Below are positions 1 to 35,177 of a stretch of DNA of 35,177 bases, in pieces. The stretch lies in the IMG/VR virus record IMGVR_UViG_2576861193_000006, one strand, 5' to 3'. The notes under the pieces are model-generated. The model was not told the DNA's origin, made no database searches, and was given only the letters and a program-made list of their open reading frames with translations. Source of the stretch: a virus (Duplodnaviria; Heunggongvirae; Uroviricota; Caudoviricetes). The position numbers were made by a program, and so were the translations under genes. Numbering within the stretch: position 1 is the stretch's first letter; each line of letters starts with the position of its first letter.

Positions 1-462
1 ATGCTGGGTGATTGTTTCCCTCCTGATTTTAAGGCTAATTTTAGTCGTGAAAGAGGTATATCACCCGGTGATGTATTGTATCTTCATTGTGATTTTACGA
101 CCCCACCTAAAGTAAAATATATGGTGGTTGTTTGCTGTGAACCTCTTTTAGTTCTTCTAATAAATTCAGATATAAATGAATTTATTAAGAGAAACAATGA
201 TCTTATGGCTTGTCAGGTCGAAATTAATAGAGAGGACCATGATTTTCTTAAATGGGACTCATTTGTTAATTGCATTGAGGCTCATGCTGCTTTCGATCTT
301 GAAATTATTAAAGAGAAAATAGCCATCCAATATGGCGACGTGCTAAAAGGTCGCATTACAGATCATTGTATGAGACAAGTTCGATGTGCAGTTGAGATAT
401 CTAAAATCATGGTTAAACGGCATAAAAAACTGATACTCGCTGCTCTTCAACATTATGAATAA
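1..462 (+). CDS. hypothetical protein, 153 aa, AT-rich cargo gene; no recognisable domain
   Basis: ORF with ATG at 1 and TAA at 460-462, followed by a hairpin terminator; base composition visibly more AT-rich than the phage core; convergent with xis. May be 5'-truncated by the window edge. Confidence 0.4.
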   Translation: MLGDCFPPDFKANFSRERGISPGDVLYLHCDFTTPPKVKYMVVVCCEPLLVLLINSDINEFIKRNNDLMACQVEINREDHDFLKWDSFVNCIEAHAAFDLEIIKEKIAIQYGDVLKGRITDHCMRQVRCAVEISKIMVKRHKKLILAALQHYE

Positions 463-5139: not shown

Positions 5140-5178
5140 TTGCGCATTATGCAAGTGTTTTTATTGCGAGATATGCAA
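5140..5178 (-). promoter_or_regulatory. candidate OL operators and pL promoter
   Basis: Two TTGC-N7-GCAA 15-mers (5140-5154, 5164-5178); on the minus strand TTGCAT (-35), 17-nt spacer, CATAAT (-10). Confidence 0.4.
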
Positions 5179-8198: not shown

Positions 8199-9013
8199 GT
8201 ATGGAGCTGATGGTTAAAGCGATGAAAATTCGAGTGGGTAATCCATTGCGAAAACTGGTTCTGATCAAGCTGGCTGATAACGCCAGCGATCAGGGTGAGT
8301 GCTGGCCCAGCTACCAGCATATTGCTGACCAGTGCGAGATTAGCAAACGTTCTGTGATGAATCATATTGCGGCTCTTTGTGATTCCGGACTGGTAAAAAA
8401 AGTCACCCGGAAAGGTGAAAAAGGTAACTCAAGTAATATCTATCTCCTTCATCTTGATGGTGCAGGAGATTCACTAGGGGGTAGTGCAAATAATTCACTA
8501 TCTGGTGCAGCAAATTCACCAGGTAGTGCAGGAGTTGCACCAGGGGGTGGTGCAGGAGATTCACCCAGAACCAGTCACTCTTTTGAACCAGTCAAAGAAC
8601 CAGTCAATGAACCAATAGCTGTTGGTGCATCTGCTGATGAGTCTGTGCGAGTTCGTTCAAACCGACCGGAATACTCTCCGGAGTTTGAGCAGGCATGGCT
8701 GGCATACCCCAAACGTGCTGGTGGCAATTCAAAATCTGCAGCCTTCAAAGCCTGGAAAGCCCGTTTGAATGAGGGGGTAAACCCCGAAACCATGCTGGAA
8801 GGTGTGAAACGCTATGCGGGCTGGGTATCTGCGATGGGTAACAGCGGCACACAATTTGTGAAACAGGCTGTCACGTTCTTTGGTCCGGATCGTCATTTCG
8901 AAGAATCCTGGGAAGTTCCTGCGGTATCTGCAGCCAGACGTGAGGATCCGTACTTCAAAGCCAGTTACGACAACGTGGACTACAGCCAGATCCCGGCAGG
9001 ATTCAGGGGGTGA
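8195..9013 (+). CDS. replication initiator protein (winged-helix N-terminal domain, O-like)
   Basis: GGAGGTG 4 nt upstream of ATG 8195; N-terminal wHTH (LIKLADNASDQGECWPSYQHIADQCEISKRSVMNHI); Gly/Ser/Ala-rich linker encoded by iteron-like repeats. Confidence 0.75.
   Translation: MSMELMVKAMKIRVGNPLRKLVLIKLADNASDQGECWPSYQHIADQCEISKRSVMNHIAALCDSGLVKKVTRKGEKGNSSNIYLLHLDGAGDSLGGSANNSLSGAANSPGSAGVAPGGGAGDSPRTSHSFEPVKEPVNEPIAVGASADESVRVRSNRPEYSPEFEQAWLAYPKRAGGNSKSAAFKAWKARLNEGVNPETMLEGVKRYAGWVSAMGNSGTQFVKQAVTFFGPDRHFEESWEVPAVSAARREDPYFKASYDNVDYSQIPAGFRG
8459..8607. repeat. candidate origin of replication: five iterons (consensus GTGCA-N5-TTCAC) at 21-24 bp spacing plus three GAACCAGTCA repeats
   Basis: Iterons ending at 8474, 8498, 8519, 8540, 8564; GAACCAGTCA at 8569, 8585, 8598; embedded in the linker of the replication initiator gene as oriLambda is in gene O. 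Confidence 0.55.
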
Positions 9014-16786: not shown

Positions 16787-16860
16787 GATAACTTAACTGA
16801 TATCCCTTTTAACGGATATATCCCTTTTAAACTTAACTGATATCCCTTTTAACGGATAAA
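16787..16860. repeat. direct repeats: two copies of 28-bp ACTTAACTGATATCCCTTTTAACGGATA (period 40) with a third copy of the inner TATCCCTTTTAA
   Basis: Copies at 16791-16818 and 16831-16858; inner motif also at 16819-16830. Confidence 0.85.
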
Positions 16861-17193
16861 GGTATTCAAGCCTGACACATCATGCGCTGTATCGTCGCCG
16901 TATTCCCGTATTAACAGAGACCGTAGCCCGACGGGGAACTCCTTCTGCGAGAGTGTGCGGGAATAATCAAAAACGATGCACACCGGGTTTTTACCGCGTT
17001 TATGGTTCGCGGGTTTGTCCCTCATGCTCGCCAGTCCTGTGCGGGGGTGGAAGAAACAGGACACTTACACAGATTCTTGTGGGCGCGATGCTATGCCTTT
17101 CTGGATTATCCCGATGCCATTCATGCAAGGCGTTGTATCAGACGTTCGTCAGAGCTGTCAGGCTGACGGGTCCTCCCGGTGGGGTGGCCTGCC

Positions 17194-17213
17194 ACGGGGC
17201 GGGAGCGTCGCGG
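17194..17213. other. cos: candidate cos site (cosN-like ACGGGGCGGGAGCGTCGCGG)
   Basis: Remembered similarity to the lambda cosN context ACGGGGCGGCGACCTCGCGG; lies 170-190 bp upstream of the small terminase gene. Confidence 0.35.
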
Positions 17214-17382
17214 AAAAAGGCTAGTTTTTGCATTTTTATCGGCCACCATCATCTTTGCATCTTATTGATTATTAATGGTTGTTTGTTTTATGTATGTCGA
17301 ATTGAGTGTTTTTTGTTCGACATCGAACGCGTTTTCTTAAAGTTGTTCGCACGATGCATGTTTAAAGCTCTCCGGAGGAAAT

Positions 17383-17874
17383 ATGGATCATGAGTTGAAA
17401 AACCTGGTGCTGAATATTAATCAACTGGCGGCTTTATCTGGTCTGCACCGCCAGACTGTCGTGGCAAGACTGAAAAACATTCGTCCCGCTGGTGGACATG
17501 ACAAACTCAAGCTATACCGGTTGACCGATATTCTGACTGAATTTATGGGGTTACCACCGCCGGTTGCTGAGGGCGAAATGGATCCACATGAACGCAAAGC
17601 CTGGTATCAGTCTGAACGTGAGCGTCTTAAGTTCGAACAGGAAACGGCACAACTCATTCCGGCCAGTGATGTCAGACGGGAGTTTGCCATCTGGGCAAAA
17701 GCGGTCGTGCAGGTGCTGGAGACATTACCGGATATTCTGGAACGTGACTGCGGCCTGCAGCCTGCCGCTGTGAGCCGTGTTCAGTCCATTATTGATGATC
17801 TGCGCGATCAGATAGCCCTGCGGGTGACCGAAGCAGGTGCGGATGATGAGGAGGAATTACAGCAGGAGGAGTAA
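17383..17874 (+). CDS. terminase small subunit (Nu1-like, N-terminal HTH)
   Basis: HTH segment INQLAALSGLHRQTVVARL; acidic C-terminus; TAATG overlap with large terminase; GGAGG upstream. Confidence 0.8.
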   Translation: MDHELKNLVLNINQLAALSGLHRQTVVARLKNIRPAGGHDKLKLYRLTDILTEFMGLPPPVAEGEMDPHERKAWYQSERERLKFEQETAQLIPASDVRREFAIWAKAVVQVLETLPDILERDCGLQPAAVSRVQSIIDDLRDQIALRVTEAGADDEEELQQEE

Positions 17875-19976
17875 TGCTGAATCAGGAAACCGCAAAGGCA
17901 GCACGAACCGATTCAGGTTATATCCTTCGCGCACCGAGACGAATGCTGGTTGCTGATGCCGTTGCTCAGTATATGCGGGTGCCCATGGGGGCCGGGAATT
18001 CAGTCCCGTGGGATCCGCTGGTGGCACCGTATGTTATTGAGCCGATGAACTGCCTGGCCTCGCGTGAATACGACGCAGTGATATTTGTTGGCCCGGCACG
18101 AACTGGCAAGACTATCGGCCTGATTGACGGCTGGGTGATTTACAATGTGATTTGCGATCCTGCTGATATGCTGATCATTCAGATGACGGAGGAAAAAGCC
18201 CGCGAACACTCCAAAAAACGACTTGCCAGAACGTTTCGCGTCAGCCCGGAAGTGGTCAGTCGCCTGAGTCCGAACAAAAATGACAACAACGTTTATGACA
18301 GAACATTCCTTGCTGGCAACTACCTGAAAATCGGCTGGCCGTCAGTCAATATCATGTCCTCATCAGATTATAAATGCGTGGCGCTGACGGATTATGACCG
18401 TTTTCCAGAAGATATTGATGGCGAGGGGGATGCCTTCTCTCTTGCCTCAAAACGTACCACCACATTTATGTCCAGTGGTATGACGCTGGTGGAGAGTTCC
18501 CCCGGCAGGGATGTGAAGGATGTGAAATGGCGACGGACTTCACCGCATGAGGCTCCACCAACCACGGGGATACTGTCGCTCTATAACCGTGGCGATCGCC
18601 GTCGCTGGTACTGGCCCTGTCCACACTGTGGTGAGTATTTTCAGCCCTGCGGCGATGTGGTTGCTGGTTTCCGTGATATTGCCGATCCCGTGCTGGCAAG
18701 TGAGGCGGCTTATATTCAGTGTCCTTCCTGTTCAGGACGGATTATGCCTGAACAAAAACGTGAGCTGAACGGACGTGGGGTCTGGTTGCGGGATGGTGAA
18801 TCTATCAATGCGGATGGCAGTCGTTATGGTGATCCCCGACGCTCACGTATTGCGTCATTCTGGATGGAGGGTCCGGCAGCTGCTTACCAGACACTCTCGC
18901 AACTCGTTTACAAACTGCTTACTGCAGAACAGGAATACGAGACAACCGGAAGTGAAGAAACACTCAAGACGGTTATCAATACCGACTGGGGATTACCTTA
19001 TCTTCCCCGTGCCAGCATGGAGCAACGAAAAAGTGAACTGCTTGAGCAGCGGGCAGAGCCAGTTCCTTCCCGCAGTGTGCCGGATGGCGTTAATTTCCTG
19101 GTGGCGACAGTTGATGTGCAGGCGGGACGTCATCGCCGTTTTGTGGTTCAGGTAACGGGCTATGGCAGCCGTGGCGAACGCTGGATTATTGATCGTTACA
19201 ACATCACGCAGTCATTGCGCGGTGACAGCGACGGGGAGAGCCAGCGAATTGATCCGGCCAGCTATCCGGAAGACTGGGATGTCCTGCTGACGGATGTTTT
19301 TCATAAAAGCTGGCCGCTGGCCTCCGATCCTTCTCAACAAATGCGACTGATGGCAATGGCGGTGGACTCCGGCGGTGAAGACGGGGTCACTGATAATGCC
19401 TATAAATTCTGGCGTCGTTGCCGTCGTGATGGCCTTGGTAAACGTATTTACCTGTTTAAGGGCGACAGCATCCGGCGCGCAAAACTGATCACCCGTACAT
19501 TCCCTGATAACACCGGACGAACGGGCCGACGGGCGCAGGCCGCAGGTGATGTGCCGCTCTGGCTTCTTCAGACGGATGCCCTGAAAGATCGGGTGAATAA
19601 CGCGTTATGGCGTGACTCTCCAGGTCCCGGCTATGTGCATTTCCCTGACTGGCTGGGGAGCTGGTTTTACGACGAACTGACGTATGAAGAGCGGAGTAGT
19701 GACGGGAAATGGAGTAAGCCGGGTCGCGGTGCCAACGAAGCTTTTGACCTGATGGTGTATGCCGAGGCTCTGGTCATTCTGCATGGATACGAAAAGATCC
19801 GCTGGCCGGATGCACCGGAGTGGGCGAGCCGGGAAACCTGGCTGGAGTGTGTCCCGGACAGTACCGAACCGTCACCCTCACCGGAACCGGTATCCACGCC
19901 TGTTAAAAAACAAAAACGGAAGAAAACAGTAACTGACGATGTTAACCCCTGGCTGACTTCCGGAGGATGGTTATGA
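17874..19976 (+). CDS. A: terminase large subunit (GpA-like)
   Basis: 700 aa; Walker A VIFVGPARTGKT; position after small subunit. Confidence 0.9.
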   Translation: MLNQETAKAARTDSGYILRAPRRMLVADAVAQYMRVPMGAGNSVPWDPLVAPYVIEPMNCLASREYDAVIFVGPARTGKTIGLIDGWVIYNVICDPADMLIIQMTEEKAREHSKKRLARTFRVSPEVVSRLSPNKNDNNVYDRTFLAGNYLKIGWPSVNIMSSSDYKCVALTDYDRFPEDIDGEGDAFSLASKRTTTFMSSGMTLVESSPGRDVKDVKWRRTSPHEAPPTTGILSLYNRGDRRRWYWPCPHCGEYFQPCGDVVAGFRDIADPVLASEAAYIQCPSCSGRIMPEQKRELNGRGVWLRDGESINADGSRYGDPRRSRIASFWMEGPAAAYQTLSQLVYKLLTAEQEYETTGSEETLKTVINTDWGLPYLPRASMEQRKSELLEQRAEPVPSRSVPDGVNFLVATVDVQAGRHRRFVVQVTGYGSRGERWIIDRYNITQSLRGDSDGESQRIDPASYPEDWDVLLTDVFHKSWPLASDPSQQMRLMAMAVDSGGEDGVTDNAYKFWRRCRRDGLGKRIYLFKGDSIRRAKLITRTFPDNTGRTGRRAQAAGDVPLWLLQTDALKDRVNNALWRDSPGPGYVHFPDWLGSWFYDELTYEERSSDGKWSKPGRGANEAFDLMVYAEALVILHGYEKIRWPDAPEWASRETWLECVPDSTEPSPSPEPVSTPVKKQKRKKTVTDDVNPWLTSGGWL

Positions 19977-20185
19977 ACCAGAATGATATCGAAGCCATGA
20001 TTCAGCGTTATACGGAAGCTGAAATGGCGGTGCTGGACGGAAAATCCGTCACCTTTAATGGTCAGCAGATGACAATGGAAAACTTATCTGAGATCCGGCA
20101 GGGACGGCAGGAGTGGGAGCGCCGCCTTGCGGCTCTGATTACACGACGACGGGGGCATCCCGGGTACCGGCTGGCGAGGTTCTGA
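19973..20185 (+). CDS. W: head-tail joining protein (gpW-like)
   Basis: About 70 aa between terminase and portal, ending RRRGHPGY.. like lambda W; GGAGG 6 nt upstream of ATG 19973. Confidence 0.6.
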   Translation: MNQNDIEAMIQRYTEAEMAVLDGKSVTFNGQQMTMENLSEIRQGRQEWERRLAALITRRRGHPGYRLARF

Positions 20186-21693
20186 TGGCAATTCTTGATG
20201 ATGTGATTGGCGTTTTTTCACCAGGATGGAAAGCGGCAAGGCTGCGTTCCCGTGCGGTGATCCAGGCTTATGAGGCCGTAAAAACGACGCGGACACACAA
20301 AGCCCGGCGGGAAAACCGAACTGCCGACCAGTTAAGCCAGTACGGGGCCGTGTCGTTACGTGAGCAGGCCCGTTACCTTGATAACAACCACGATCTGGTT
20401 ATTGGTGTATTTGACAAGCTGGAAGAACGGGTGGTGGGGAAAAACGGGATTATTGTCGAGCCACATCCGGTATTACGCAATGGGGCCATTGCCCGTGATC
20501 TGGCAGCGGAGATACGCACCCGATGGAGTGAATGGTCTGTCAGTCCGGAAGTCACCGGGCAGTTTACCCGTCCGATGCTGGAACGTCTGATGCTGCGTAC
20601 CTGGCTGCGCGATGGTGAGGTGTTTGCCCAGATGGTTTCCGGGCGCATAAACAGCCTGACGCCTTCTGCCGGTGTTCATTTCTGGCTGGAGGCGCTCGAG
20701 CCGGACTTTATTCCCATGACCAGTGATGAGAGCAACAGGCTGAATCAGGGCGTGTTTGTTGATGACTGGGGGCGTCCCGAAAAATATCTGGTGTATAAAA
20801 GCCGTCCCGTATCCGGGCGGCAGATGGAAACCAAAGAAGTGGATGCAGAGCGAATGCTGCATCTTAAATTTGTTCGCCGTCTGCACCAGATGCGCGGGAC
20901 GTCTTTGTTGTCCGGTGTGCTGATCCGCCTCAGTGCCCTGAAAGAGTATGAAGATTCTGAGCTGACTGCAGCAAGGATCGCCGCTGCTCTGGGGATGTAT
21001 ATCCGGAAAGGCGACGGGCAGAGCTATGAACCGGATGGTAATGGCAGCAAGGAGAATGAACGCGAGCTTACCATTCAGCCAGGCATTATTTACGACGATC
21101 TGAAACCCGGCGAAGAAATCGGAATGGTGAAGTCGGATCGTCCCAATCCTAACCTTGAAACTTTTCGTAATGGTCAGTTGCGTGCCGTGGCGGCGGGCAG
21201 TCGTCTGAGTTTTTCCAGTACGGCACGCAACTATAACGGCACTTACAGCGCCCAGCGTCAGGAACTGGTTGAGTCTACTGATGGCTACCTGATCCTGCAG
21301 GACTGGTTTATTGGTGCCGTCACCCGCCCGATGTATCGTGCCTGGCTGAAACAGGCTGTGGCATCCGGTGTTATCAGGCTACCCCGCGATCTTGACCGTT
21401 CTTCACTGTATACCGCGGTGTATTCCGGACCAGTGATGCCGTGGATTGACCCTGTTAAGGAGGCTGAGGCCTGGAAAATCCAGATTCGTGGTGGAGCGGC
21501 GACAGAATCAGACTGGGTACGTGCTGGTGGTCGTAATCCGGATGATGTCAAACGTCGGCGCAAGGCCGAAATTGATGAAAACCGCAAGCTGGATCTGGTA
21601 TTTGATACCGATCCGGCCAGTGATAAAGGAGGCAGCAGTGCCGCAACGAAACGACAGGAGCCGCAGCACACCGACGACCAGTCCGAAGAATAA
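20185..21693 (+). CDS. B: portal protein (lambda gpB-like)
   Basis: About 500 aa after W; ATG overlaps W stop (TGATG); position and size typical of lambda-family portal. Confidence 0.85.
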   Translation: MAILDDVIGVFSPGWKAARLRSRAVIQAYEAVKTTRTHKARRENRTADQLSQYGAVSLREQARYLDNNHDLVIGVFDKLEERVVGKNGIIVEPHPVLRNGAIARDLAAEIRTRWSEWSVSPEVTGQFTRPMLERLMLRTWLRDGEVFAQMVSGRINSLTPSAGVHFWLEALEPDFIPMTSDESNRLNQGVFVDDWGRPEKYLVYKSRPVSGRQMETKEVDAERMLHLKFVRRLHQMRGTSLLSGVLIRLSALKEYEDSELTAARIAAALGMYIRKGDGQSYEPDGNGSKENERELTIQPGIIYDDLKPGEEIGMVKSDRPNPNLETFRNGQLRAVAAGSRLSFSSTARNYNGTYSAQRQELVESTDGYLILQDWFIGAVTRPMYRAWLKQAVASGVIRLPRDLDRSSLYTAVYSGPVMPWIDPVKEAEAWKIQIRGGAATESDWVRAGGRNPDDVKRRRKAEIDENRKLDLVFDTDPASDKGGSSAATKRQEPQHTDDQSEE

Positions 21694-21706
21694 TTCCTGG
21701 TTCAGG

Positions 21707-23665
21707 ATGCAGGCTGGTCACCAGAGTGACGCGGATATTTATATTTATGACGAGATTGGTTTCTGGGGTGTTACAGCGAAGCAGTTTATCAGTGATCTGA
21801 ATGCACTGGGCGATATCACCCACATTAATCTCCATATTAATTCACCGGGTGGCGATGTCTTTGAAGGCATCGCCATTTTTAATGCGCTGAAAACACATGG
21901 TGCGTCCATTACCGTTTATGTCGACGGTGTGGCGGCGTCAATGGCGTCGGTCATTGCGATGGTGGGAAACCCGGTCATTATGCCGGAAAACACCTTCATG
22001 ATGATTCATAAACCATTTGGCTTTACGGGCGGTGATGCGGAGGACATGCGCACCTATGCCGACCTGCTCGATAAGGTTGAGGCGGTTCTGTTACCCGCTT
22101 ATGCACAGAAAACCGGGAAAACCACCGATGAAATTGCTGCCATGCTGGCGGATGAGACCTGGATGTCCGGTGCCGAATGTCTGGCACATGGATTTGCTGA
22201 TCAGGTAACGCCAGCCGTTAAGGCAATGGCATGTATTCAGTCAAAACGTACAGAGGAATTTAAAAAGATGCCGGAATCCATTCGAAACATGATTACTCCG
22301 CCACGCAACAGTGCTCCACGCGTACAGGATGATGAACCTGCAGCCTCCCGGACGCCAGTGCAGGCAGCAGCACCTGTGGTGGATGAAAACAGTATCCGTG
22401 CGCAGGTACTGGCAGAGCAAAAAGCGCGTGTAAACGGTATTAATGATCTGTTTGCCATGTTTGGCGGGCGTTATCAGACGCTGCAGGCTCAGTGTCTTGC
22501 CGATCCTGAATGTTCGCTGGAGCAGGCCCGCGAAAAGCTGTTGAACGAGATGGGGCGCGAGTCCACGCCATCCAATAAAAATACCCCGGCTCATATTTAT
22601 GCCGGTAACGGTAATTTTGTGGGGGACGGGATCCGCCAGGCGCTGATGGCGCGTGCCGGATTTGAAAAAACCGAACGTGATAATGTCTACAACGGGATGA
22701 CCCTGCGTGAATATGCCCGTATGTCACTGACTGAACGGGGTATTGGGGTTTCCGGTTATAACCCGATGCAGATGGTCGGTGCGGCGTTCACACACAGTAC
22801 GTCTGACTTCGGTAATATTCTGCTGGATGTTGCGAACAAAGCCATTCTGCAGGGCTGGGAAGATGCTCCTGAAACCTATGAACAGTGGACGCGGAAAGGT
22901 CAGTTGTCTGATTTTAAAATTGCCCATCGTGTGGGTATGGGGGGCTTCAGTGCTCTGCGTCAGGTGCGTGAAGGGGCGGAATATAAATACGTCACCACCG
23001 GAGATAAACAGGCCACTATTGCACTGGCGACCTATGGCGAGCTGTTCAGTATCACCCGTCAGGCCATTATCAATGATGATCTGAATATGCTGACCGATGT
23101 CCCGATGAAGCTGGGCCGTGCGGCGAAATCCACTATTGCCGATCTGGTTTATGCCATTCTGACGTCTAACCCGAAAATCTCCACAGATAATGTAAGTCTG
23201 TTCGATAAAGCGAAACATGCAAACGTACTGGAGAGCGCTGCAATGGACGTGGCATCGCTGGATAAAGCCCGCCAGTTGATGCGCGTTCAGAAAGAGGGGG
23301 AGCGTCATCTGAATATTCGTCCTGCGTTCGTACTGGTACCGACGGCGATGGAGTCTGTTGCTAACCAGGTCATTCGCTCCTCAAGTGTCAAGGGGGCTGA
23401 CATTAACGCCGGTATTATTAACCCGGTGAAAGATTTTGCGACCGTTATTGCAGAGCCTCGTCTTGATGATAACAGCCAGACCACCTTCTACCTGGCTGCG
23501 TCAAAAGGCTCCGATACGATTGAAGTGGCTTATCTCAACGGTGTGGATACGCCATATATTGATCAGATGGAGGGCTTCAGTGTGGATGGCGTGACAACGA
23601 AAGTGCGTATTGACGCCGGTGTCGCGCCAGTTGATCACCGCGGTCTGGTGAAATGTACGGCGTAA
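21707..23665 (+). CDS. fused prohead protease (ClpP/S14-like) - scaffold-like linker - major capsid protein
   Basis: N-terminal ClpP-like region (INSPGGDVFEGIAIFNALK ... MASVIAMVG), central Ala/Gln-rich segment, C-terminal ~320 aa capsid-like domain; alternative GTG start at 21638 with AAGGAGG upstream. Confidence 0.8.
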   Translation: MQAGHQSDADIYIYDEIGFWGVTAKQFISDLNALGDITHINLHINSPGGDVFEGIAIFNALKTHGASITVYVDGVAASMASVIAMVGNPVIMPENTFMMIHKPFGFTGGDAEDMRTYADLLDKVEAVLLPAYAQKTGKTTDEIAAMLADETWMSGAECLAHGFADQVTPAVKAMACIQSKRTEEFKKMPESIRNMITPPRNSAPRVQDDEPAASRTPVQAAAPVVDENSIRAQVLAEQKARVNGINDLFAMFGGRYQTLQAQCLADPECSLEQAREKLLNEMGRESTPSNKNTPAHIYAGNGNFVGDGIRQALMARAGFEKTERDNVYNGMTLREYARMSLTERGIGVSGYNPMQMVGAAFTHSTSDFGNILLDVANKAILQGWEDAPETYEQWTRKGQLSDFKIAHRVGMGGFSALRQVREGAEYKYVTTGDKQATIALATYGELFSITRQAIINDDLNMLTDVPMKLGRAAKSTIADLVYAILTSNPKISTDNVSLFDKAKHANVLESAAMDVASLDKARQLMRVQKEGERHLNIRPAFVLVPTAMESVANQVIRSSSVKGADINAGIINPVKDFATVIAEPRLDDNSQTTFYLAASKGSDTIEVAYLNGVDTPYIDQMEGFSVDGVTTKVRIDAGVAPVDHRGLVKCTA

Positions 23666-23689
23666 ACGTCGCAGACAACAACTCTGATG

Positions 23690-23708
23690 GCCCGTAAGGG
23701 CTTTTTTT
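23690..23708 (+). terminator. short hairpin terminator after capsid gene
   Basis: GCCC-GTAA-GGGC followed by TTTTTTT. Confidence 0.45.
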
Positions 23709-23751
23709 GTACCTGAAATCAGCCCCTGAACGGGGCTGTGCGGAGACAGTT

Positions 23752-24075
23752 ATGGCAAAGAATTTTGTAGAAGAAGGAAAAACGGTGGCGATTGTTGCCA
23801 GTGCAGCCATCAGCAGCGGAGATCTGGTGCAGGTGGGTGATGTTTTTGCGGTGGCGCTGACCGATATTCCACAGGGTGAAACAGGCGACGGCATGACCGA
23901 AGGGGTGTTTATGCTGCCTAAGCTGAAAACGGATGACATGAAAACGGGTAAGAAGGTTTATCTGAAGTCCGGAAAAGTTCAGCTGACTAACAGCGGCTCT
24001 GATCCGCTGGTCGGGGTTGTCTGGGCAGATGCCGGAACCAGTGCAGAAGAAGTGCCGGTAAAACTCAATGTCTGA
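23752..24075 (+). CDS. small head-associated protein (possible decoration/DUF2190-like)
   Basis: GGAGA 5 nt upstream of ATG; position directly after the capsid gene. Confidence 0.55.
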   Translation: MAKNFVEEGKTVAIVASAAISSGDLVQVGDVFAVALTDIPQGETGDGMTEGVFMLPKLKTDDMKTGKKVYLKSGKVQLTNSGSDPLVGVVWADAGTSAEEVPVKLNV

Positions 24076-24343
24076 TCCCTTTTCCCGGCTGGCAGCGCGT
24101 ATGGATGCTATCACGGTCAGAAAGATGGGAAAGACAGCCTCGATTAATGATGTCGATATGACTGTGATCCCGGGAGAAACACTGGCAGAGCTGAATGCTC
24201 TGTCCGGACCTGCGGTCTCTCTGGTGGTGTTTTCTTCGGGATACCGCCCACGGCGCGGGGATCGCGTTGTTTATGACGGACAACAATGGACGGTCACACG
24301 GCATGAACGTTTTAACGGTAAGCCAATGATCTTTATTGAGTAA
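24068..24343 (+). CDS. head-tail joining protein (FII-like)
   Basis: C-terminal RRGDRVVYDGQQWTV resembles lambda FII (RRGDTLTIGEENFWV); position before Z. Confidence 0.6.
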   Translation: MSDPFSRLAARMDAITVRKMGKTASINDVDMTVIPGETLAELNALSGPAVSLVVFSSGYRPRRGDRVVYDGQQWTVTRHERFNGKPMIFIE

Positions 24344-24354
24344 AGAGGTGTGGG

Positions 24355-24933
24355 ATGAAGGGGCTTGAGAATGCCATCCGCAATCTGAACAGCCTTGATA
24401 CCCGTATGGTGCCACAGGCCAGCGCATGGGCGATAAACCGTGTGGCACAGAAAGCGGTCTCGGTTGCCACCCGGCAGGTTGCCGGGAATACCGTTGCGGG
24501 AGATAACCAGGTGAAAGGGATACCCCTGAAACTGGTACGTCAGCGTGTCCGGGTGTTTAAAGCCAGTCCGTCAGGAAAAATGACGGCCAGGATCCGCGTT
24601 AACCGGGGCAATCTGCCCGCCATTAAGCTGGGGACAGCCCGGGTCAGACTGGCCCGGCGTGGTGGAAAACTGCAGTACCGTGGCAGTGTGCTGAAGGTGG
24701 GTAAATATCTTTTCCGGGATGCATTTATTCAGCAACTGGCGAATGGTCGCTGGCATGTGATGCGGCGTATTGATGGCAAAAATCGTTACCCCATTGATGT
24801 GGTGAAAATCCCGCTGTCCGGACCGCTGACACAGGCATTTGAAGATGCCCGCGACCGCATCATTGCTGCGGAAATGCCGAAACAGCTGGGGTATGCACTG
24901 AAACAACAACTGAGGTTATGGCTGACCCGATGA
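24355..24933 (+). CDS. Z: tail completion protein Z-like
   Basis: 192 aa, MKGLENAIRNLNSL N-terminus; position between FII-like and U; AGAGGTG upstream. Confidence 0.7.
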   Translation: MKGLENAIRNLNSLDTRMVPQASAWAINRVAQKAVSVATRQVAGNTVAGDNQVKGIPLKLVRQRVRVFKASPSGKMTARIRVNRGNLPAIKLGTARVRLARRGGKLQYRGSVLKVGKYLFRDAFIQQLANGRWHVMRRIDGKNRYPIDVVKIPLSGPLTQAFEDARDRIIAAEMPKQLGYALKQQLRLWLTR

Positions 24934-25331
24934 ACCGACATACACAAATACGCCAGGTCGTACTGGCACGCCTTCGGGAACAGTGTGGAGACAGCGCCAC
25001 GTTTTTTGACGGACTTCCGGCATTTGTTGATGCGCAGGAACTGCCTGCCGTGGCGGTGTGGCTGAGTGATGCTCAGTACACCGGAAAAATGACGGATGAA
25101 GATGACTGGCAGGCTGTTCTGCATATTGCTGTCTTCATCCGGGCACAGGCACCGGATTCAGAGCTGGATATGTGGATGGAGAGCACCATTTTCCCGGCCC
25201 TGAATGATGTACCGGCACTTTCCGGACTCATCGACACCCTGATCCCACTCGGTTTTAACTATCAACGTGATAATGAGATGGCCACCTGGGCGATGGCGGA
25301 AATCACGTACCAGATCACGTACACGAATTAA
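24930..25331 (+). CDS. U: tail terminator protein U
   Basis: ATFFDGLPAFVDAQELPAVAVWLSDAQYTG ... PDSELDMWMES ... ITYQITY closely parallels lambda gpU; ATGA overlap with Z. Confidence 0.85.
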   Translation: MNRHTQIRQVVLARLREQCGDSATFFDGLPAFVDAQELPAVAVWLSDAQYTGKMTDEDDWQAVLHIAVFIRAQAPDSELDMWMESTIFPALNDVPALSGLIDTLIPLGFNYQRDNEMATWAMAEITYQITYTN

Positions 25332-25341
25332 GGAGGTGGTA

Positions 25342-26085
25342 ATGACCACACCAAATCCACTGGCAAAAACGAAAGGTGCGGGAACGACGTTCTGGATGTA
25401 TACCGGCAACGGCGATGCGTTTGCGAACCCTTTATCGGACACTGACTGGCTGCGTCTTGCGATGGTGAAGGATCTGCAACCTGGCGAAATGACCGCTGAT
25501 GCAGAAGATGACACTTATCTCGATGATGAAGATGCAGACTGGAAAACGACAACCCAGGGGCAGAAATCCGTCGGTGATACTTCGGCGACGCTGGCCTGGC
25601 GTCCGGGTGACAGCGGACAGAAAAAACTGGTTCAGTTGTTCGACTCCGGTGAAGTCTGCGCGTTTCGTATCAAATATCCCAACGGTACTGTTGATGTTTT
25701 CCGTGGCTGGCTGAGTTCACTGGGTAAAACCATTGCCTCAAAAGACGTGATGACCCGCACCGTGAAAATCAGCGGTGTGGGGCGTCCATATCTGGCAGAG
25801 GAGGGCACTGAAACCGTGGGCGTTACCGGGCTGACGGTGGCACCGGCATCCGCCAGTGTCAATGTGGGAGCAACCACCACGCTGACCTTTACAGTAAAAC
25901 CTGACGGAGCCAGTGACAAAGCGATCAGTGTGCATTCGACAGATCCACAGACTGCCACGGTGACCCTGAACGGGCTTGTGGCCACGGTGAAAGGCGTGAA
26001 GCAGGGCAGTGTCAGCATTGTGGGCATGACTTCTGACGGCGATTTTGTGGCAGTGGCTACGGTGGCTGTCAGCGCCGCAGGTTAA
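25342..26085 (+). CDS. V: major tail protein V with C-terminal Ig-like domain
   Basis: AGGAGG 5 nt upstream; C-terminal Big_2-like segment. Confidence 0.85.
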   Translation: MTTPNPLAKTKGAGTTFWMYTGNGDAFANPLSDTDWLRLAMVKDLQPGEMTADAEDDTYLDDEDADWKTTTQGQKSVGDTSATLAWRPGDSGQKKLVQLFDSGEVCAFRIKYPNGTVDVFRGWLSSLGKTIASKDVMTRTVKISGVGRPYLAEEGTETVGVTGLTVAPASASVNVGATTTLTFTVKPDGASDKAISVHSTDPQTATVTLNGLVATVKGVKQGSVSIVGMTSDGDFVAVATVAVSAAG

Positions 26086-26104
26086 CAGGACGATACTCAT
26101 CATT

Positions 26105-26129
26105 TGCCCCGGTTATCCGGGGCTTTTTT
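26105..26129 (+). terminator. rho-independent terminator after V
   Basis: GCCCCGG-TTAT-CCGGGGC followed by TTTTTTG. Confidence 0.6.
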
Positions 26130-26142
26130 GCAGGTGGAGAAC

Positions 26143-26532
26143 ATGATGTTTCTGAAACAGGGCACGTTTAATTATGAAAAGCAGTCCGTGGTGCTCAGTG
26201 AGCTGTCCGGGCTGCAGAGAATTGAATATCTGGCGTTTGTTCAGCAGCGAACGGCAAAGTTTGATGCCGAAGAGGGAGAACTGCCGGAGGCTGAACGACA
26301 GATTGCTTTTCTGCGGATGGGGATGGATATCAATGCCTGGCTGGTTTCCCGCTCACTGTGGAATGCGGAACAGTCTCAGGATGTTGAGACGCTTTGCGCA
26401 TCCGTTATTACAACATGGTCGTATGATGCCCTGGGAGCGGGGGCGGAGATGGTTCTGTCGCTGAGCGGTATGGGAGCCATTGAGAATACCGGGGATTTGG
26501 AGCATGAGGTGCTGACGCCGGAAAAGTCCTGA
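26143..26532 (+). CDS. G: tail assembly chaperone G
   Basis: MMFLKQGTFNYEKQSVVLSELSGLQRIEYLA resembles lambda gpG; GGTGGAGA upstream. Confidence 0.85.
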   Translation: MMFLKQGTFNYEKQSVVLSELSGLQRIEYLAFVQQRTAKFDAEEGELPEAERQIAFLRMGMDINAWLVSRSLWNAEQSQDVETLCASVITTWSYDALGAGAEMVLSLSGMGAIENTGDLEHEVLTPEKS

Positions 26533-26870
26533 CGCGGGAAATGCAGTTTGTCATGCGGCTTGCCCGGGAGTTCCGGCGGGCAGACTGGCGGCGGATGCTG
26601 TCGGAAATGTCGGCCACTGAGCTTGGTGAGTGGGGCGATTATTTCCGGATGCAGAGCTTCAGTGATGTGTGGATGGATGCGCAGTTTGCCTCGCTGAAGG
26701 CATTGATCGTGAGAATGGTGTCCGGTAGCAGTGATGCTGCGGTGGCTGATTTCAGCCTTTTACCGGAAGAGAACGGGATACCGGAGCGAACGGACGAAGA
26801 ACTGATGCATCTTGGGGAAGGTATTTCCGGAGGTGTGCGTTATGGACCAGATAGCCAACCTGGTCATTGA
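26508..26870 (+). CDS. T: T-frame segment of tail assembly protein G-T, expressed by -1 programmed frameshift from G
   Basis: -1 frame opens at 26508 and overlaps the end of G; candidate slip site GGAAAAG at 26520-26526; the conserved G/GT arrangement of lambda-like tails. Confidence 0.7.
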   Translation, partial: GADAGKVLTREMQFVMRLAREFRRADWRRMLSEMSATELGEWGDYFRMQSFSDVWMDAQFASLKALIVRMVSGSSDAAVADFSLLPEENGIPERTDEELMHLGEGISGGVRYGPDSQPGH

Positions 26871-29800
26871 TTTGGGGATTGATGCGGCAGAGTTTAAAAA
26901 TGAAATTCCCCGTATCAAAAACCTTCTGAATGGTGCAGCCAGCGATGCAGAACGGTCTTCTGCCCGTATGCAGCGTTTTATGGAGCGTCAGACTCAGGCC
27001 GCCCGGCAGACAATGCAGGCGGCTTCTTCGGCTGCAACAGCCGCATCCGTCCATGCGCAGACGGTGGAGAAGAGCGCACAGGCTCATGAACGCATGGCCC
27101 GCGAGGTGGAGCAAACCCGCCAGCGTATGGAGGCACTGAGCCAGAAAATGCGCGAGGAACAGGCGCAGGCCATGGCTCTGGCGGAGGCTCAGGATAAAGC
27201 GGCTGCCGCGTTTTATCATCAGATTGACAGTGTGAAACAGGCCAGTGCGGGGCTGCAGGAATTACAGCGTATTCAGCAGCAGATCCGACAGGCCAGAAAC
27301 AGTGGCGGGATTGGTCAGCAGGATTATCTGGCGCTGATTTCTGAGGTTACGGCGAAAACCCGTGTTCTTACGCAGGCTGAGGCAGAGGCTACCCGACAGA
27401 AAGTGGCGTTTATCCGTCAGCTTAAAGAGCAGGCAACCCGCCAGAATCTTTCTTCTTCTGAGTTGCTTCGTGCTAAGGCTGCCCAGCTGGGGGTAAGCAG
27501 TGCTGCAGAAGTGTATATCCGCAAAATGGAGCAGGCAGGAAAAGCCACGCATTCGCTGGGTCTGAAAAGTGCAGCGGCCCGCCAGGAGATAGGCGTTCTG
27601 ATAGGTGAACTGGCTCGCGGCAATTTAGGGGCGCTGAGGGGATCCGGGATAACGCTGGCTAACCGTGCCGGATGGATAGACACACTGATGTCACCGAAAG
27701 GCATGATGCTGGGCGGGGTTATTGGCGGTATTGCCGCGGCTGTCTATGGTCTGGGTAAAGCCTGGTATGACGGTCAGAAGGAGGGGGAAGAATTTAACCG
27801 CCAGCTGTCGCTGACGGGGCATTATGCCGGAGTCACTGCCGGGCAGCTGTGGACGCTCAGTCGTGCTATTTCCGGGAATGGTATCACGCAACATGCTGCA
27901 GCCGGTGCGCTGGCTCAGGTGGTGGGGAGTGGTGCATTTCGTGGAAACGATATCGGTATGGTGGCGAGAGCTGCCGCACAGATGGAGCGATCGGTTGGCC
28001 AGTCGGTCAGCGATACCATAAGTCAGTTTAAGCGGCTGAAGGATGATCCTGTAAATGCCGCGAAGGCTCTGGACAATGAGCTGCATTTTCTTACTGCCAC
28101 TCAGCTTGAGCAGATACGCGTCCTTGGGGAACAGGGGCGGTCCAGTGATGCGGCACGGATAGCCATGTCTGCACTGGCAGAGGAAACCGGTCGGCGTACT
28201 GCGGATATTGATAATAACCTCAATGCGCTGGGTAGTACGCTGCAAACCTTGTCTGACTGGTGGAAGCAGTTCTGGGATGCGGCCATGAATATTGGTCGTG
28301 AAGATTCGCTGGATGCGCAGATTGCCACTTTGCAGGAGAAAGTGTCGCGGGCGAAAAGACTCCCCTGGACGGCATCATCTTCTCAGGTTGAATACGATCA
28401 GCAGCGTCTTAACGATCTTCAGGAGAAAAAACGCCAGAAGGATTTGCAGGATGCAAAAGAGCAGGCAGAGCGGAATTATCAGGAGCAACAGAAACGCCGT
28501 AATGCTGAAAATGCTGCACTGAATCGGATGAATGAAACGGAAGCTGCACGACATCAGCGTGAAATTGCGCGTATTAATGCCATGCAGTACGCCGATCAGG
28601 CTGTCAGGGATGCTGCGATACAACGTGAAAATGAACGTTACGAGAAAGCCCTGGCATCCGGTAAGAAAAAAACACGCGAAACCCGTAATGATGAGGCCAC
28701 CCGGTTATTGCTGCAGTACAGCCAGCAACAGGCACAGGTGGAAGGACAGATTGCTGCTGCAAGACAGTCAGCAGGCATTGCCACTGACAGGATGACAGAA
28801 GCGCATAAACAGCTTCTGGCTCTGCAGCAGCGCATCAGCGAGCTGGACGGGAAAAAACTGACGGCAGATGAAAAGAGTGTGCTGGCCCGTAAAGATGAAC
28901 TGATTCAGGCACTGACGCTGCTGGATGTAAAACAGCAGGAGCTTCAGAAACAGACGGCACTCAACGATCTGAAGAAAAAAACAATTCAGCTGACCAGTCA
29001 ACTGGCTGAAGAAGAGCGCGCTCAGCGTCAGCAACATGACCTGGATATCGCCACGGTGGGTATGGGTGATCAGCAGCGGCAGCGATATCAGGTACAACTG
29101 AGTCTTCGCCAGAAATACCAGCAACAGCTGGAGCAGTTGAGGCGGGATAGTGAGCAGAAAGGGACATATAACACGGATGACTACAGAAAGGCCGAGCAGG
29201 CGCTGACGGAGAGCCTGAACCGACAACTGAATGAGAATCGCCGTTACTGGCAACAGCTTGAAATTGCTCAGGGTAACTGGAAAAACGGTGCTATGCGGGC
29301 GTTTCAGAATTTCACGGCAGATGCGGATAATGCGGCAGGCACTGCTGAGCAGATGCTTACAGCGGCATTTAACAGTGCAGGTAATGTACTGGCAACGTTC
29401 TGTACTACCGGAAAACTGAACTTCAAATCTTTTACCGCCTCGCTCCTTTCTGATCTGGCAAAAATCATGGCTCAGATGTCCATGATGCAGGCAGTTAAGG
29501 GGATTGGTTCGGCGTTTGGCTGGGGGAGTGCAGCAACTGCCAGTGTGACGCCCAATGCTGATGGTGGTGTTTATCAGTCTGCTGATTTGAGTCGCTACAG
29601 TGGCACGGTGGTTAACCGTCCGACGTTTTTTGCTTTTGCAAAAGGTGCAGGTGTGATGGGGGAAGCTGGGCCTGAAGCCATTCTGCCTCTGCGTCGTGGT
29701 GCTGACGGTAAGCTGGGGGTTGTGGCGGATATTGGTGGTTCAGGTATGGCGATGTTTGCCCCGCAGTACAACATCGAGATCAATAACGATGGCACGAACG

Positions 29801-29916
29801 GGCAGATAGGTCCGGCTGCCCTGAAGGTGGTTTATGACCTCGGGAAAAAAGCAGCAGCGGACTTTATGCAACAGCAGTCCCGTGATGGTGGTCTGTTCTC
29901 CGGAGGTGGACGATGA
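26842..29916 (+). CDS. H: tail tape measure protein (gpH-like)
   Basis: About 1020 aa, coiled-coil/Ala-Gln-rich; GGAGGTG 6 nt upstream of ATG 26842. Confidence 0.9.
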   Translation: MDQIANLVIDLGIDAAEFKNEIPRIKNLLNGAASDAERSSARMQRFMERQTQAARQTMQAASSAATAASVHAQTVEKSAQAHERMAREVEQTRQRMEALSQKMREEQAQAMALAEAQDKAAAAFYHQIDSVKQASAGLQELQRIQQQIRQARNSGGIGQQDYLALISEVTAKTRVLTQAEAEATRQKVAFIRQLKEQATRQNLSSSELLRAKAAQLGVSSAAEVYIRKMEQAGKATHSLGLKSAAARQEIGVLIGELARGNLGALRGSGITLANRAGWIDTLMSPKGMMLGGVIGGIAAAVYGLGKAWYDGQKEGEEFNRQLSLTGHYAGVTAGQLWTLSRAISGNGITQHAAAGALAQVVGSGAFRGNDIGMVARAAAQMERSVGQSVSDTISQFKRLKDDPVNAAKALDNELHFLTATQLEQIRVLGEQGRSSDAARIAMSALAEETGRRTADIDNNLNALGSTLQTLSDWWKQFWDAAMNIGREDSLDAQIATLQEKVSRAKRLPWTASSSQVEYDQQRLNDLQEKKRQKDLQDAKEQAERNYQEQQKRRNAENAALNRMNETEAARHQREIARINAMQYADQAVRDAAIQRENERYEKALASGKKKTRETRNDEATRLLLQYSQQQAQVEGQIAAARQSAGIATDRMTEAHKQLLALQQRISELDGKKLTADEKSVLARKDELIQALTLLDVKQQELQKQTALNDLKKKTIQLTSQLAEEERAQRQQHDLDIATVGMGDQQRQRYQVQLSLRQKYQQQLEQLRRDSEQKGTYNTDDYRKAEQALTESLNRQLNENRRYWQQLEIAQGNWKNGAMRAFQNFTADADNAAGTAEQMLTAAFNSAGNVLATFCTTGKLNFKSFTASLLSDLAKIMAQMSMMQAVKGIGSAFGWGSAATASVTPNADGGVYQSADLSRYSGTVVNRPTFFAFAKGAGVMGEAGPEAILPLRRGADGKLGVVADIGGSGMAMFAPQYNIEINNDGTNGQIGPAALKVVYDLGKKAAADFMQQQSRDGGLFSGGGR

Positions 29917-29949
29917 AAACCTTCCGCTGGAAAGTGAAACCCGGTATGG

Positions 29950-30282
29950 ATGTGGCTTCGGCCCCTTCCGGATGTGGCTTCGGCCCCTTCTGTGGCTTCG
30001 GCCCCTTCCGTAATAAAGGTGCGCTTTGGTGATGGCTATTCTCAGCGTGCGCCTGCCGGGCTGAACGCTGACCTGAAAACGTACAGCGTGACGCTTTCTG
30101 TTCCCCGCGAGGAGGCCACGGCACTGGAATCGTTTCTGGCTGAGCACGGGGGCTGGAAGGCCTTTCTGTGGACGCCGCCTTATGGCTACCGGCAGATAAA
30201 GGTGACCTGCGCAAAATGGTCGTCGCGGGTCAGTATGTTGCGTGTTGAGTTCAGCGCAGAGTTTGAACAGGTGGTGAACTGA
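29950..30282 (+). CDS. M: minor tail protein M (body of gene; N-terminus frameshifted relative to lambda-like start at 29913)
   Basis: VRFGDGYSQRAPAGLNADLKTYSVTLSVPREEA ... KVTCAKWSSRVSMLRVEFSAEFEQVVN matches lambda gpM; the lambda-like N-terminus MKTFRWKVKPGMDVAS is encoded in another frame from ATG 29913. Confidence 0.7.
   Translation: MWLRPLPDVASAPSVASAPSVIKVRFGDGYSQRAPAGLNADLKTYSVTLSVPREEATALESFLAEHGGWKAFLWTPPYGYRQIKVTCAKWSSRVSMLRVEFSAEFEQVVN
29951..30008 (+). repeat. three tandem copies of 18-bp TGTGGCTTCGGCCCCTTC (first followed by CGGA) at the 5' end of M
   Basis: Copies start at 29951, 29973, 29991. Confidence 0.85.
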
Positions 30283-30980
30283 TGCAGAATATCCGACAGG
30301 AAACACTGAATGAATGCACCCGTGCGGAGCAGTCTGCCAGCGTGGTGCTCTGGGAAATCGATCTGACAGAGGTCGGCGGAGAGCGTTATTTCTTCTGTAA
30401 TGAGCAGAACGAAAAAGGTGAACCAGTCACCTGGCAGGGGCGGCAGTATCAGGCCTATCCCATTCAGGGAAGTGGATTTGAGATGAACGGCAAAGGAGCC
30501 AGTGCAAGGCCAACGCTGAAAGTCTCTAATCTGCACGGCATGGTCACCGGGATGGCGGAAGACCTGCAGAGTCTGGTCGGAGGAACGGTGGTCAGGCGTA
30601 AGGTTTACGCCCGTTTTCTGGATGCGGTGAACTTCGTCAACGGAAACAGCGATGCCGATCCGGAGCAGGAGGTGATCAGCCGCTGGCGCATCGAGCAGTG
30701 CAGCGAACTGAGCGCGGTGAGCGCCTCTTTTGTATTGTCCACGCCGACGGAAACGGATGGCGCTGTTTTTCCGGGGCGCATCATGCTGGCCAACACCTGT
30801 ACCTGGACCTATCGCGGTGATGAGTGCGGTTATAGCGGTCCGGCTGTCGCGGATGAATATGACCAGCCGACGTCCGATATCACGAAAGATAAATGCAGTA
30901 AATGCCTGAGTGGCTGTAAGTTTCGCAATAATGTCGGCAACTTTGGCGGCTTCCTTTCCATTAACAAACTTTCGCAGTAA
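30282..30980 (+). CDS. L: minor tail protein L
   Basis: MQNIRQETLNECTRAEQSASVVLWEIDLTEVGGERYFFCNEQNEKGEP ... lambda gpL-like; TGATG overlap with M. Confidence 0.9.
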   Translation: MQNIRQETLNECTRAEQSASVVLWEIDLTEVGGERYFFCNEQNEKGEPVTWQGRQYQAYPIQGSGFEMNGKGASARPTLKVSNLHGMVTGMAEDLQSLVGGTVVRRKVYARFLDAVNFVNGNSDADPEQEVISRWRIEQCSELSAVSASFVLSTPTETDGAVFPGRIMLANTCTWTYRGDECGYSGPAVADEYDQPTSDITKDKCSKCLSGCKFRNNVGNFGGFLSINKLSQ

Positions 30981-30984
30981 ATCC

Positions 30985-31728
30985 ATGACAGAGACAGAAT
31001 CAGCGATTCTGGCGCACGCCCGGCGATGTGCGCCAGCGGAGTCGTGCGGCTTCGTGGTGAGAACGCCGGAGGGGGAAAGATATTTTCCCTGCGTGAATAT
31101 CTCCGGTGAGCCGGAAGAGTATTTCCGGATGTCGCCGGAGGACTGGCTGCAGGCAGAAATGCAGGGTGAGATTGTGGCGCTGGTCCACAGTCACCCCGGT
31201 GGTCTGCCCTGGCTGAGTGAGGCCGATCGGCGGCTGCAGGTGCAGAGTGATTTGCCGTGGTGGCTGGTCTGCCGGGGGGCGATTTACAAGTTCCGCTGTG
31301 TGCCACATCTTACCGGGCGGCGCTTTGAGCACGGGGTGACGGACTGTTACACGCTGTTCCGGGATGCTTACCATCTGGCGGGGATTGAGATGCCGGATTT
31401 TCATCGCGAGGATGACTGGTGGCGTAACGGTCAGAATCTCTATTTGGATAATCTGGAGGCCACAGGGCTGTATCAGGTGCCGTTGTCAGCGGCGCAGCCG
31501 GGCGATGTGCTGCTGTGCTGTTTTGGTTCATCGGTGCCGAATCATGCCGCCATTTACTGTGGTGACGGCGAGCTGCTGCACCATATTCCTGAACAACTGA
31601 GCAAACGAGAGAGGTATACCGACAAATGGCAGCGACGCACACACTCCCTCTGGCGTCACCGGGCATGGCACGCATCTGCCTTTACGGGGATTTACAACGA
31701 TTTGGTCGCCGCATCGACCTTCGTGTGA
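30985..31728 (+). CDS. K: tail assembly protein K (JAB/MPN + NlpC/P60-like)
   Basis: HSHPGG JAMM-like motif and C-terminal Cys/His segment; overlaps I by about 100 nt as in lambda. Confidence 0.85.
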   Translation: MTETESAILAHARRCAPAESCGFVVRTPEGERYFPCVNISGEPEEYFRMSPEDWLQAEMQGEIVALVHSHPGGLPWLSEADRRLQVQSDLPWWLVCRGAIYKFRCVPHLTGRRFEHGVTDCYTLFRDAYHLAGIEMPDFHREDDWWRNGQNLYLDNLEATGLYQVPLSAAQPGDVLLCCFGSSVPNHAAIYCGDGELLHHIPEQLSKRERYTDKWQRRTHSLWRHRAWHASAFTGIYNDLVAASTFV

Positions 31729-32267
31729 AAACGGGGGCTGAAGCCATCCGGGCGCTGGCCACGCAGCTTCCGGCGTTTCGCCAGAAACTGAATGAGGGCT
31801 GGTATCAGGTGCGCATTTCCGGGCGTGATGCAGGCGAAAACGAATTATCTGCCCGTCTTAATGAGCCGCTGGCAAATGGTGCCGTGATCCACATCGTACC
31901 GCGTCTGGCGGGTGCCAAAAGTGGCGGTATTTTTCAGGCAGTGCTGGGTGCGGCGCTAATTGCTACGGCAATCTGGATGCCGGGGCTTAGTATTGTTGCA
32001 AGTAATCTCATGTTCTCTCTTGGGGCAGGTATGGTTTTAGGCGGTGTTGCGCAGATGCTGGCACCGAAAGCCAAAACGCCTAAAGTGTCAGCCACTGATA
32101 ACGGTAAGCAAAATACCTATTTTTCCTCATTGGATAACATGGTTGCCCAAGGCAATGTCCTGCCTGTTCTGTACGGTGAAATGCGCGTGGGGTCACGTGT
32201 GGCATCTCAGGAGATCAGCACGGCAGATGAAGGGGATGGTGGTCAGGTTGTGGTAATTGGGCGGTAA
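31626..32267 (+). CDS. I: tail assembly protein I
   Basis: MAATHTLPLASPGMARICLYGDLQRFGRRIDLRVKTGAEAIRALATQLPAFRQK ... matches lambda gpI. Confidence 0.85.
   Translation: MAATHTLPLASPGMARICLYGDLQRFGRRIDLRVKTGAEAIRALATQLPAFRQKLNEGWYQVRISGRDAGENELSARLNEPLANGAVIHIVPRLAGAKSGGIFQAVLGAALIATAIWMPGLSIVASNLMFSLGAGMVLGGVAQMLAPKAKTPKVSATDNGKQNTYFSSLDNMVAQGNVLPVLYGEMRVGSRVASQEISTADEGDGGQVVVIGR

Positions 32268-32741: not shown

Positions 32742-35177
<2,436 letters not shown>

Follow-up and report, generated by a model that had tools for sequence, protein, structure and literature searches.

The 40-nt repeat expansion splitting tail gene M of a lambdoid Escherichia coli prophage is most probably an artefact of a draft contig

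In the DNA analysed here, the tail gene M of a lambdoid E. coli prophage is split over two reading frames by a 40-nt repeat expansion, and this feature is most probably not real. We analysed the whole 35,177-nucleotide stretch of the virus record IMGVR_UViG_2576861193_000006, which is called the window in the following. The explanation we prefer, with a probability of about 0.7, is that the additional 40 nt in M constitute a false local duplication introduced by stitching or gap closure of a draft contig. This explanation is based on the presence of three private insertions in a sequence that otherwise shows 0-1 substitutions per 7-11 kb, on the equal length and equal jump sizes of two of these events irrespective of coding context, and on their mirror symmetry about one block, their chance-level microhomology and the mixing of alleles in the third insertion.

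Results

Structure of gene M and its repeat tract

The region around M contains the following elements:

26842-29916, plus strand: tape measure gene H, intact, 1024 aa
29902-29908, plus strand: Shine-Dalgarno sequence GGAGGTG of the native M start, anti-Shine-Dalgarno duplex of -10.8 kcal/mol
29913-30032, plus strand: truncated 5' ORF of M, consisting of 19 native codons, 20 out-of-frame codons and a TGA stop (30030-30032)
29948-30010, plus strand: M repeat tract, with GGA-U-C at 29948-29969, GGA-U at 29970-29990 and U-C at 29991-30009; novel junction sequences CCCTTCCGGATGTGG and CCCTTCTGTGGC
29950-30282, plus strand: +1-frame ORF, carrying M residues 13-109 after 7 junk residues and a duplicated VASAPS
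30282-30980, plus strand: tail tip gene L, intact
30985-31728, plus strand: gene K
31665-32267, plus strand: gene I
32745 to window end, plus strand: gene J, open to the window end

The ATG of M (29913-29915) overlaps the TGA stop of H as ATGA, just as the initial annotation had read it, and the ribosome-binding site in front of it has a strong GGAGG core (29902-29906). The frame starting at 29913 reads MKTFRWKVKPGMDVASAPSGCGFGPFCGFGPFRNKGALW, of which MKTFRWKVKPGMDVASAPS is native and the following 20 residues are unrelated to M. A lambda-like N-terminus had been recognized in this frame, and the residues MKTFRWKVKPGMDVAS are indeed identical to those of lambda. The earlier description of a 39-codon frame that terminates at 30030-30032, with the rest of M in the +1 frame, was also correct; the +1-frame ORF includes VIKVRFGDGYSQRAPAG and runs to 30282. 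Residues 1-19 are encoded by positions 29913-29969 and residues 13-109 by positions 29989-30279 in a different frame, and the ATG at the H stop does not open an unbroken frame of about 109 codons in the window.

The 18-nt unit U (TGTGGCTTCGGCCCCTTC) had been reported at 29951, 29973 and 29991. Exact matching recovered these three copies and found no other copy in the window. Tandem Repeats Finder returned an array at 29948-30010 with periods of 22 and 18, and the tandem junction pattern did not occur in any of 100 dinucleotide-preserving shuffles of the window. When we aligned the region to lambda and to E. coli 4/1-1, a relative with 100%-identical flanks, the tract read GGA-U-C-GGA-U-U-C in the window and GGA-U-C in its ancestral form. 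This corresponds to a frame-shifting addition of exactly 40 nt (22+18), the length given before, and the single copy in lambda, as stated in the initial annotation, was visible in the alignment.

The identity of the gene is well defined. It is located between the tape measure gene H and the tail tip gene L, and the ORF 29950-30282 matched PF05939 (Phage_min_tail) with 116.1 bits (cut-off 39) over profile positions 10-108; for M of an intact relative, 131.4 bits over positions 1-108 were obtained. Comparison of the same ORF with the lambda tail tip protein M (PDB 8IYK, chain M) gave E = 4.4e-56. Its lambda counterpart gpM serves as the distal tail protein (Dit). This protein assembles into a hexamer ring that connects tip and tube, and in the virion none of its 109 residues is disordered (PMC10721106, PMC11101478, PMC7291167).

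It is extremely unlikely that M is still made from this arrangement, either by starting at the ATG at 29950 or by +1 ribosomal frameshifting at CCC-U within the repeats. An N-truncated M starting at 29950 had been proposed earlier, and an in-frame ORF up to 30282 that keeps most of the PF05939 profile does exist. However, the start codon lacks a Shine-Dalgarno sequence (-3.0 kcal/mol vs -10.8 kcal/mol for the native start) and lies inside the ORF that begins at the native start, and the product would be devoid of the conserved residues 1-12 of a fully ordered ring protein. Rescue from this codon is therefore unlikely. As to frameshifting, CCC-U codons are prone to +1 slippage, and reading of the sequence places such sites in the repeat units, in the frame of the 5' ORF. 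On the other hand, no homologue employs a frameshift in M, since all homologues examined have one ORF, and the tract does not fold in any special way (z about 0).

Several specific routes were considered and rejected. Initiation at the ATG at 29950 or at downstream GTGs would involve anti-Shine-Dalgarno duplexes of -1.7 to -3.3 kcal/mol, compared with -10.8 kcal/mol for the native M start. Ribosomes re-initiating at TGATG (30030) would enter the third frame, in which the ATG of this motif lies. Programmed ribosomal frameshifting was discarded because the two-frame organisation is not conserved among the homologues examined, which are single-ORF.

The insertion in M is private to one record

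The H-M-L region was matched in 3,905 of the 5,426 complete E. coli genomes, and among the best matches listed, which have 100%-identical flanks, the matched span was 561 nt for a 601-nt query. A 101-nt query centred on the M tract yielded no full-length match among the 5,426 genomes. Similarly, no tandem junction of U was found in IMG/VR and metagenome contigs, where a single-copy control pattern matched 9 viral contigs. The junction scan was also negative (0 matches) in a collection that is nearly uninformative for E. coli because it holds one genome per species.

The truncated 39-aa product is recorded in one contig only, AYKC01000019.1 of the NCBI draft GCA_000511525.1. This contig and the window have the same sequence and end at the same position, inside J. 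Such a position is typical of a short-read draft that breaks at prophage repeats. A published table assigns the AYKC accession series to strain FBP1 of E. coli, with pig faeces as source and the Netherlands as country (PMC11893012). Searches with rare proteins, aimed at further parts of the contig or at a second assembly of the strain, recovered this contig alone.

At least 55 blocks in the collection of assemblies contain a residue-identical H protein, and all other contigs examined have an intact M of 109 codons right after this H. Apart from the 40 nt, two relatives (L015, L018) agree with the window at each of 7,095 aligned nt, and another one (L043) has 1 mismatch in 11,111 nt. On the basis of these sequence comparisons, the 40-nt insertion is private to one record; it occurs in one assembly only and near-identical relatives do not have it, as expected of an assembly artefact. 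Functional intact phages sharing the identical three-copy tract would have spoken against a defect in M, and no such relative was found among those searched.

These data also bear on the suggestion of the initial annotation that the tract is slippage-prone and toggles M. A contingency locus, in which changes in repeat number switch M and tail production on and off, is not supported and has a very low probability. The tract does consist of three frame-shifting tandem units in the 5' coding region, and loss of a unit could restore the frame: deletion of the 22-nt unit would leave an in-frame M with six extra residues, and deletion of all 40 nt would give the wild type. However, thousands of M genes from complete genomes, IMG/VR, metagenomes and identical-H contigs did not show any repeat-number polymorphism, so that copy-number variation was absent from every relative searched. 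The in-frame variant with six additional residues was not found by exact look-up in a collection of 15 billion proteins, and the other hypothetical intermediates were likewise absent; negatives for short peptides are uninformative here, since the recorded 39-aa product was missed as well. Moreover, there are few units, and these are long and irregular (22, 21 and 19 nt), and an event of identical format in non-coding DNA (see below) indicates that the tract is not specific to M.

The remaining genes of the prophage

The window represents a lambdoid E. coli prophage with repressor and cro-like genes, an antiterminator Q, a lysis cassette, a terminase, a portal, a protease-capsid fusion and a lambda-type tail module. 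When about 50 annotated proteins of two relatives were compared with the window by tblastn, M was the sole protein split over two frames. Nearly all other proteins aligned at full length without gaps; the few exceptions are located in the mosaic left arm or concern a variant terS, which is itself an intact ORF. Since about 50 other genes are full length, the window sequence is not generally error-prone.

A number of additional features were observed. The tail chaperone gene G ends with CCGGAAAAGTCCTGA and T begins 9 nt later (26520-26541). The slippery heptamer GGGAAAG of lambda is absent from this junction and thus, any G-T frameshift site must differ from that of lambda. Inside J, a 586-codon antisense ORF (33345-35105, minus strand) is unlikely to be a gene and probably results from the composition of the J coding sequence. 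In relatives (L032-L041), the end that corresponds to positions 1-520 of the window adjoins the chromosomal ubiC-ubiA-plsB-dgkA-lexA-dinF-zur region, and a SocA/Panacea-domain gene immediately precedes the first ORF of the window (1-462), for which Pfam gave no match. An integrase gene was not found at the 1-520 end of the window.

Two further private insertions

In addition to the M tract, the window carries the following elements:

16790-16857, plus strand: twin insertion of exactly 40 nt, non-coding, between the lysis cassette and terS; novel junction sequences ACGGATATATCCC and TTTTAAACTTAAC
16830-29969, no strand assigned: 13.1-kb block from terS up to the beginning of M, with one of the 40-nt events at each end
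34288-34299, plus strand: third private insertion, 12 nt, in frame in J, changing SSGTT to SSGTTSGTT; novel junction sequence ACCACTTCCGG

A repeat scan of the whole window detected one other array with periods of 22 and 18 (16790-16858). Alignment with relatives indicated the layout X-Y-Z-Y-X-Y-Z at this twin site and X-Y-Z in the ancestral form, where X is AACTTAACTG, Y is ATATCCCTTTTA and Z is ACGGAT. The top listed matches among the complete E. coli genomes had 100%-identical flanks and spanned 611 nt for a 651-nt query, which means that these genomes do not have the 40 nt of the twin. The twin junction was absent from IMG/VR.

Computed decomposition of the two 40-nt events showed that each of them consists of three ancestral segments joined by two backward jumps. 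At the twin site a jump of 18 nt is followed by one of 22 nt, and in M the 22-nt jump precedes the 18-nt jump. At either end of the 13.1-kb block between the sites, it is the 22-nt jump that borders the block, so that the two events are mirror-symmetric about it. The microhomology at the junctions amounts to 1 and 1 nt at the twin site and to 1 and 0 nt in M. The same format recurs regardless of coding context, once in M and once between genes. We infer that the block 16830-29969 was a separate primary assembly unit.

The third insertion is of a different kind. In J, allele alpha of one segment (CCTCCGGTACCA) stands in tandem before the resident allele beta (CTTCCGGCACCA), and the inserted 12-mer represents an alternative natural allele, present in three of the loci retrieved, rather than a copy of the adjacent sequence. 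Two versions of one sequence are thus mixed at a join. The flanks have 0 mismatches over 5,187 nt to a relative with the resident allele, the best matches in complete E. coli genomes spanned 189 nt for a 201-nt query, and the 12-nt insertion was absent from IMG/VR and metagenome contigs. This sequence arrangement suggests abutted contigs with a mismatched overlap that was kept. Prophage DNA is typically present in multiple copies in E. coli, and the tandem arrangement of the two J alleles would imply that the strain has a second near-identical J region and that the deposited contig was stitched.

Besides the three insertions, the only other noted difference from close relatives that did not prove to be natural variation is a T5 run at 5158, intergenic and downstream of the repressor gene, where four of the closer relatives have T4. 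It could be either a homopolymer-type sequencing error or natural variation. Iteron-like direct repeats are present in a replication-type gene with an HTH_36 domain (8480-8531, 21 nt x 2.5; 8585-8614, 12 nt x 2.5). One relative (L047) has one 12-nt iteron copy fewer, and this array therefore varies naturally, whereas the M tract does not.

Genuine mutation as a possible alternative origin

A genuine recent mutation is an unlikely origin of the insertion. According to this explanation, a double template switch (serial replication slippage) put the 40 nt after codon 19 by going back 22 nt, copying 21 nt and going back another 18 nt. The inserted DNA is an exact and local copy of the adjacent sequence, as slippage would produce it, and the M event can be reached by two tandem duplications, solely in the order 22 nt and then 18 nt. 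Natural decay is also seen elsewhere in this prophage family: one relative (L019) is devoid of the DNA corresponding to window positions 31485-32228 (K/I), another one (L020) of positions 23985-25706 (Z-U-V), and in a third one (L024) the protease-capsid gene is interrupted by an IS66 element. Loss of the frame after residue 19 would fit into this picture, since it would inactivate a hexameric gpM in which all 109 residues are ordered (PMC10721106).

However, a twin of the same length and with the same jumps in non-coding DNA at a distance of 13 kb is very unlikely to result from independent mutations; we roughly estimate the chance of such a coincidence at 1 in 1000 for jump sizes distributed over about 5-40 nt. 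Slippage normally uses several nucleotides of microhomology, which neither site offers with its 0-1 nt at the junctions. The twin cannot be derived by any route via one or two simple tandem duplications and would require a double switch in one step. Thus, simple slippage, which the initial annotation had listed as an inactivating mutation, is a poor fit. Furthermore, three private insertions would have accumulated alongside 0-1 substitutions per 7-11 kb, and the insertion in J has the bases of the other allele. A variant of this explanation, slippage promoted by a hairpin, was rejected because folding was no better than for shuffled sequences in the tract (z = -0.07), in its ancestor (z = -0.03) and in the opposite strand (z = -0.99).

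It is very unlikely that both insertions will be confirmed by reads and that one process of fixed geometry, a 22/18-nt double backward switch with almost no microhomology, generated them. Such a process would have struck twice, in mirror fashion, at the ends of the 13-kb head-tail block. We know of no described bacterial or phage mechanism with a paired 22/18-nt switch signature.

If the insertion were real, it would be a null mutation of M. Ribosomes would stop after 39 codons, no distal tail ring would be formed, and the particles would be tail-less or non-infectious. M is likely to be required for a functional tail as the ring between tip and tube, and because gpM forms this ring, the prophage would be tail-defective through gpM loss. 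The defect could be rescued only by M supplied from another lambdoid prophage or if a repeat unit were lost.

Discussion

Proposed origin of the probable false duplication

A false duplication created during assembly would account for the observations as follows. The draft contig AYKC01000019.1 (GCA_000511525.1) is likely to have been stitched from smaller assembly units, and the redundancy would have been created in this step. The three insertion sites would then mark joins between primary contigs, and the breaks between these contigs were probably caused by the presence of another lambdoid prophage of almost identical sequence in this genome. A joining or gap-closing step with fixed parameters would have left redundant sequence at each join. 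The true genome would contain a single-copy, in-frame 109-codon M and an intact tail module, and the novel junctions would be without support in the raw reads. Independent natural mutations would give such a pattern very rarely, whereas processing of joins with fixed parameters would give it readily. Gap closers are reported to insert often sequence that is unlike the true one (PMC8848313).

Some observations do not fit easily. No simple model of an untrimmed overlap yields the middle segments of the two 40-nt events. The copies in M and at the twin site are exact, which is also expected of fresh real duplications, and the M event, unlike the twin, can be obtained by two ordinary tandem duplications. 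None of several models that we went through on paper (unremoved k-1 overlaps, tiny graph nodes, gap filling after edge trimming) reproduced both sites, and we could not name any assembler, scaffolder or gap closer that has the 22/18/40 geometry. A literature search for AYKC01 and FBP1 did not retrieve a paper on the sequencing and assembly method. Taken together, an assembly error, one of the options of the initial annotation, is best supported, since two more private insertions share the hallmarks of the M tract; its nature is rather a false local expansion than the repeat collapse that had been suspected.

These findings call for caution. A striking frameshift in an essential phage gene turned out to be one of several fixed-format insertions private to one 2013 draft, and it should be taken as prophage decay or as a regulatory switch only after confirmation at the read level. 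A practical test for similar cases is to seek sibling events of equal size and geometry in the non-coding DNA of the same record. If, however, the tracts were true, the paired 22/18-nt switches would point to an undescribed mutational mechanism.

Comparison with known systems

The M region of the window resembles that of lambda in the gene order H-M-L-K-I-J, in the M start over the H stop and in the N-terminus of the protein. However, lambda and every relative examined have one 109-codon M ORF, whereas in the window record the 40 nt split it after codon 19. Contingency loci likewise have tandem repeats near the 5' coding end that change the frame, but the M tract differs from them by its lack of polymorphism among relatives, its long irregular units and its copy number of only three. 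Serial replication slippage also copies immediately upstream sequence in two successive backward steps, but two independent events that share both jump sizes are not expected of it. The frameshift in stf of laboratory lambda is a precedent for the inactivation of a tail-related gene by a frameshift (PMC10721106). Unlike M, stf is not needed for plaques to form, and its frameshift has been demonstrated by experiment, whereas that in M of the window is a putative one. The insertions of the window resemble false local duplications at contig joins or closed gaps of draft assemblies, as they are private to one draft record, recur with fixed sizes and mix two alleles at one join. The typical false duplication is a single overlap that was not removed, whereas here each 40-nt event comprises three segments and two jumps.
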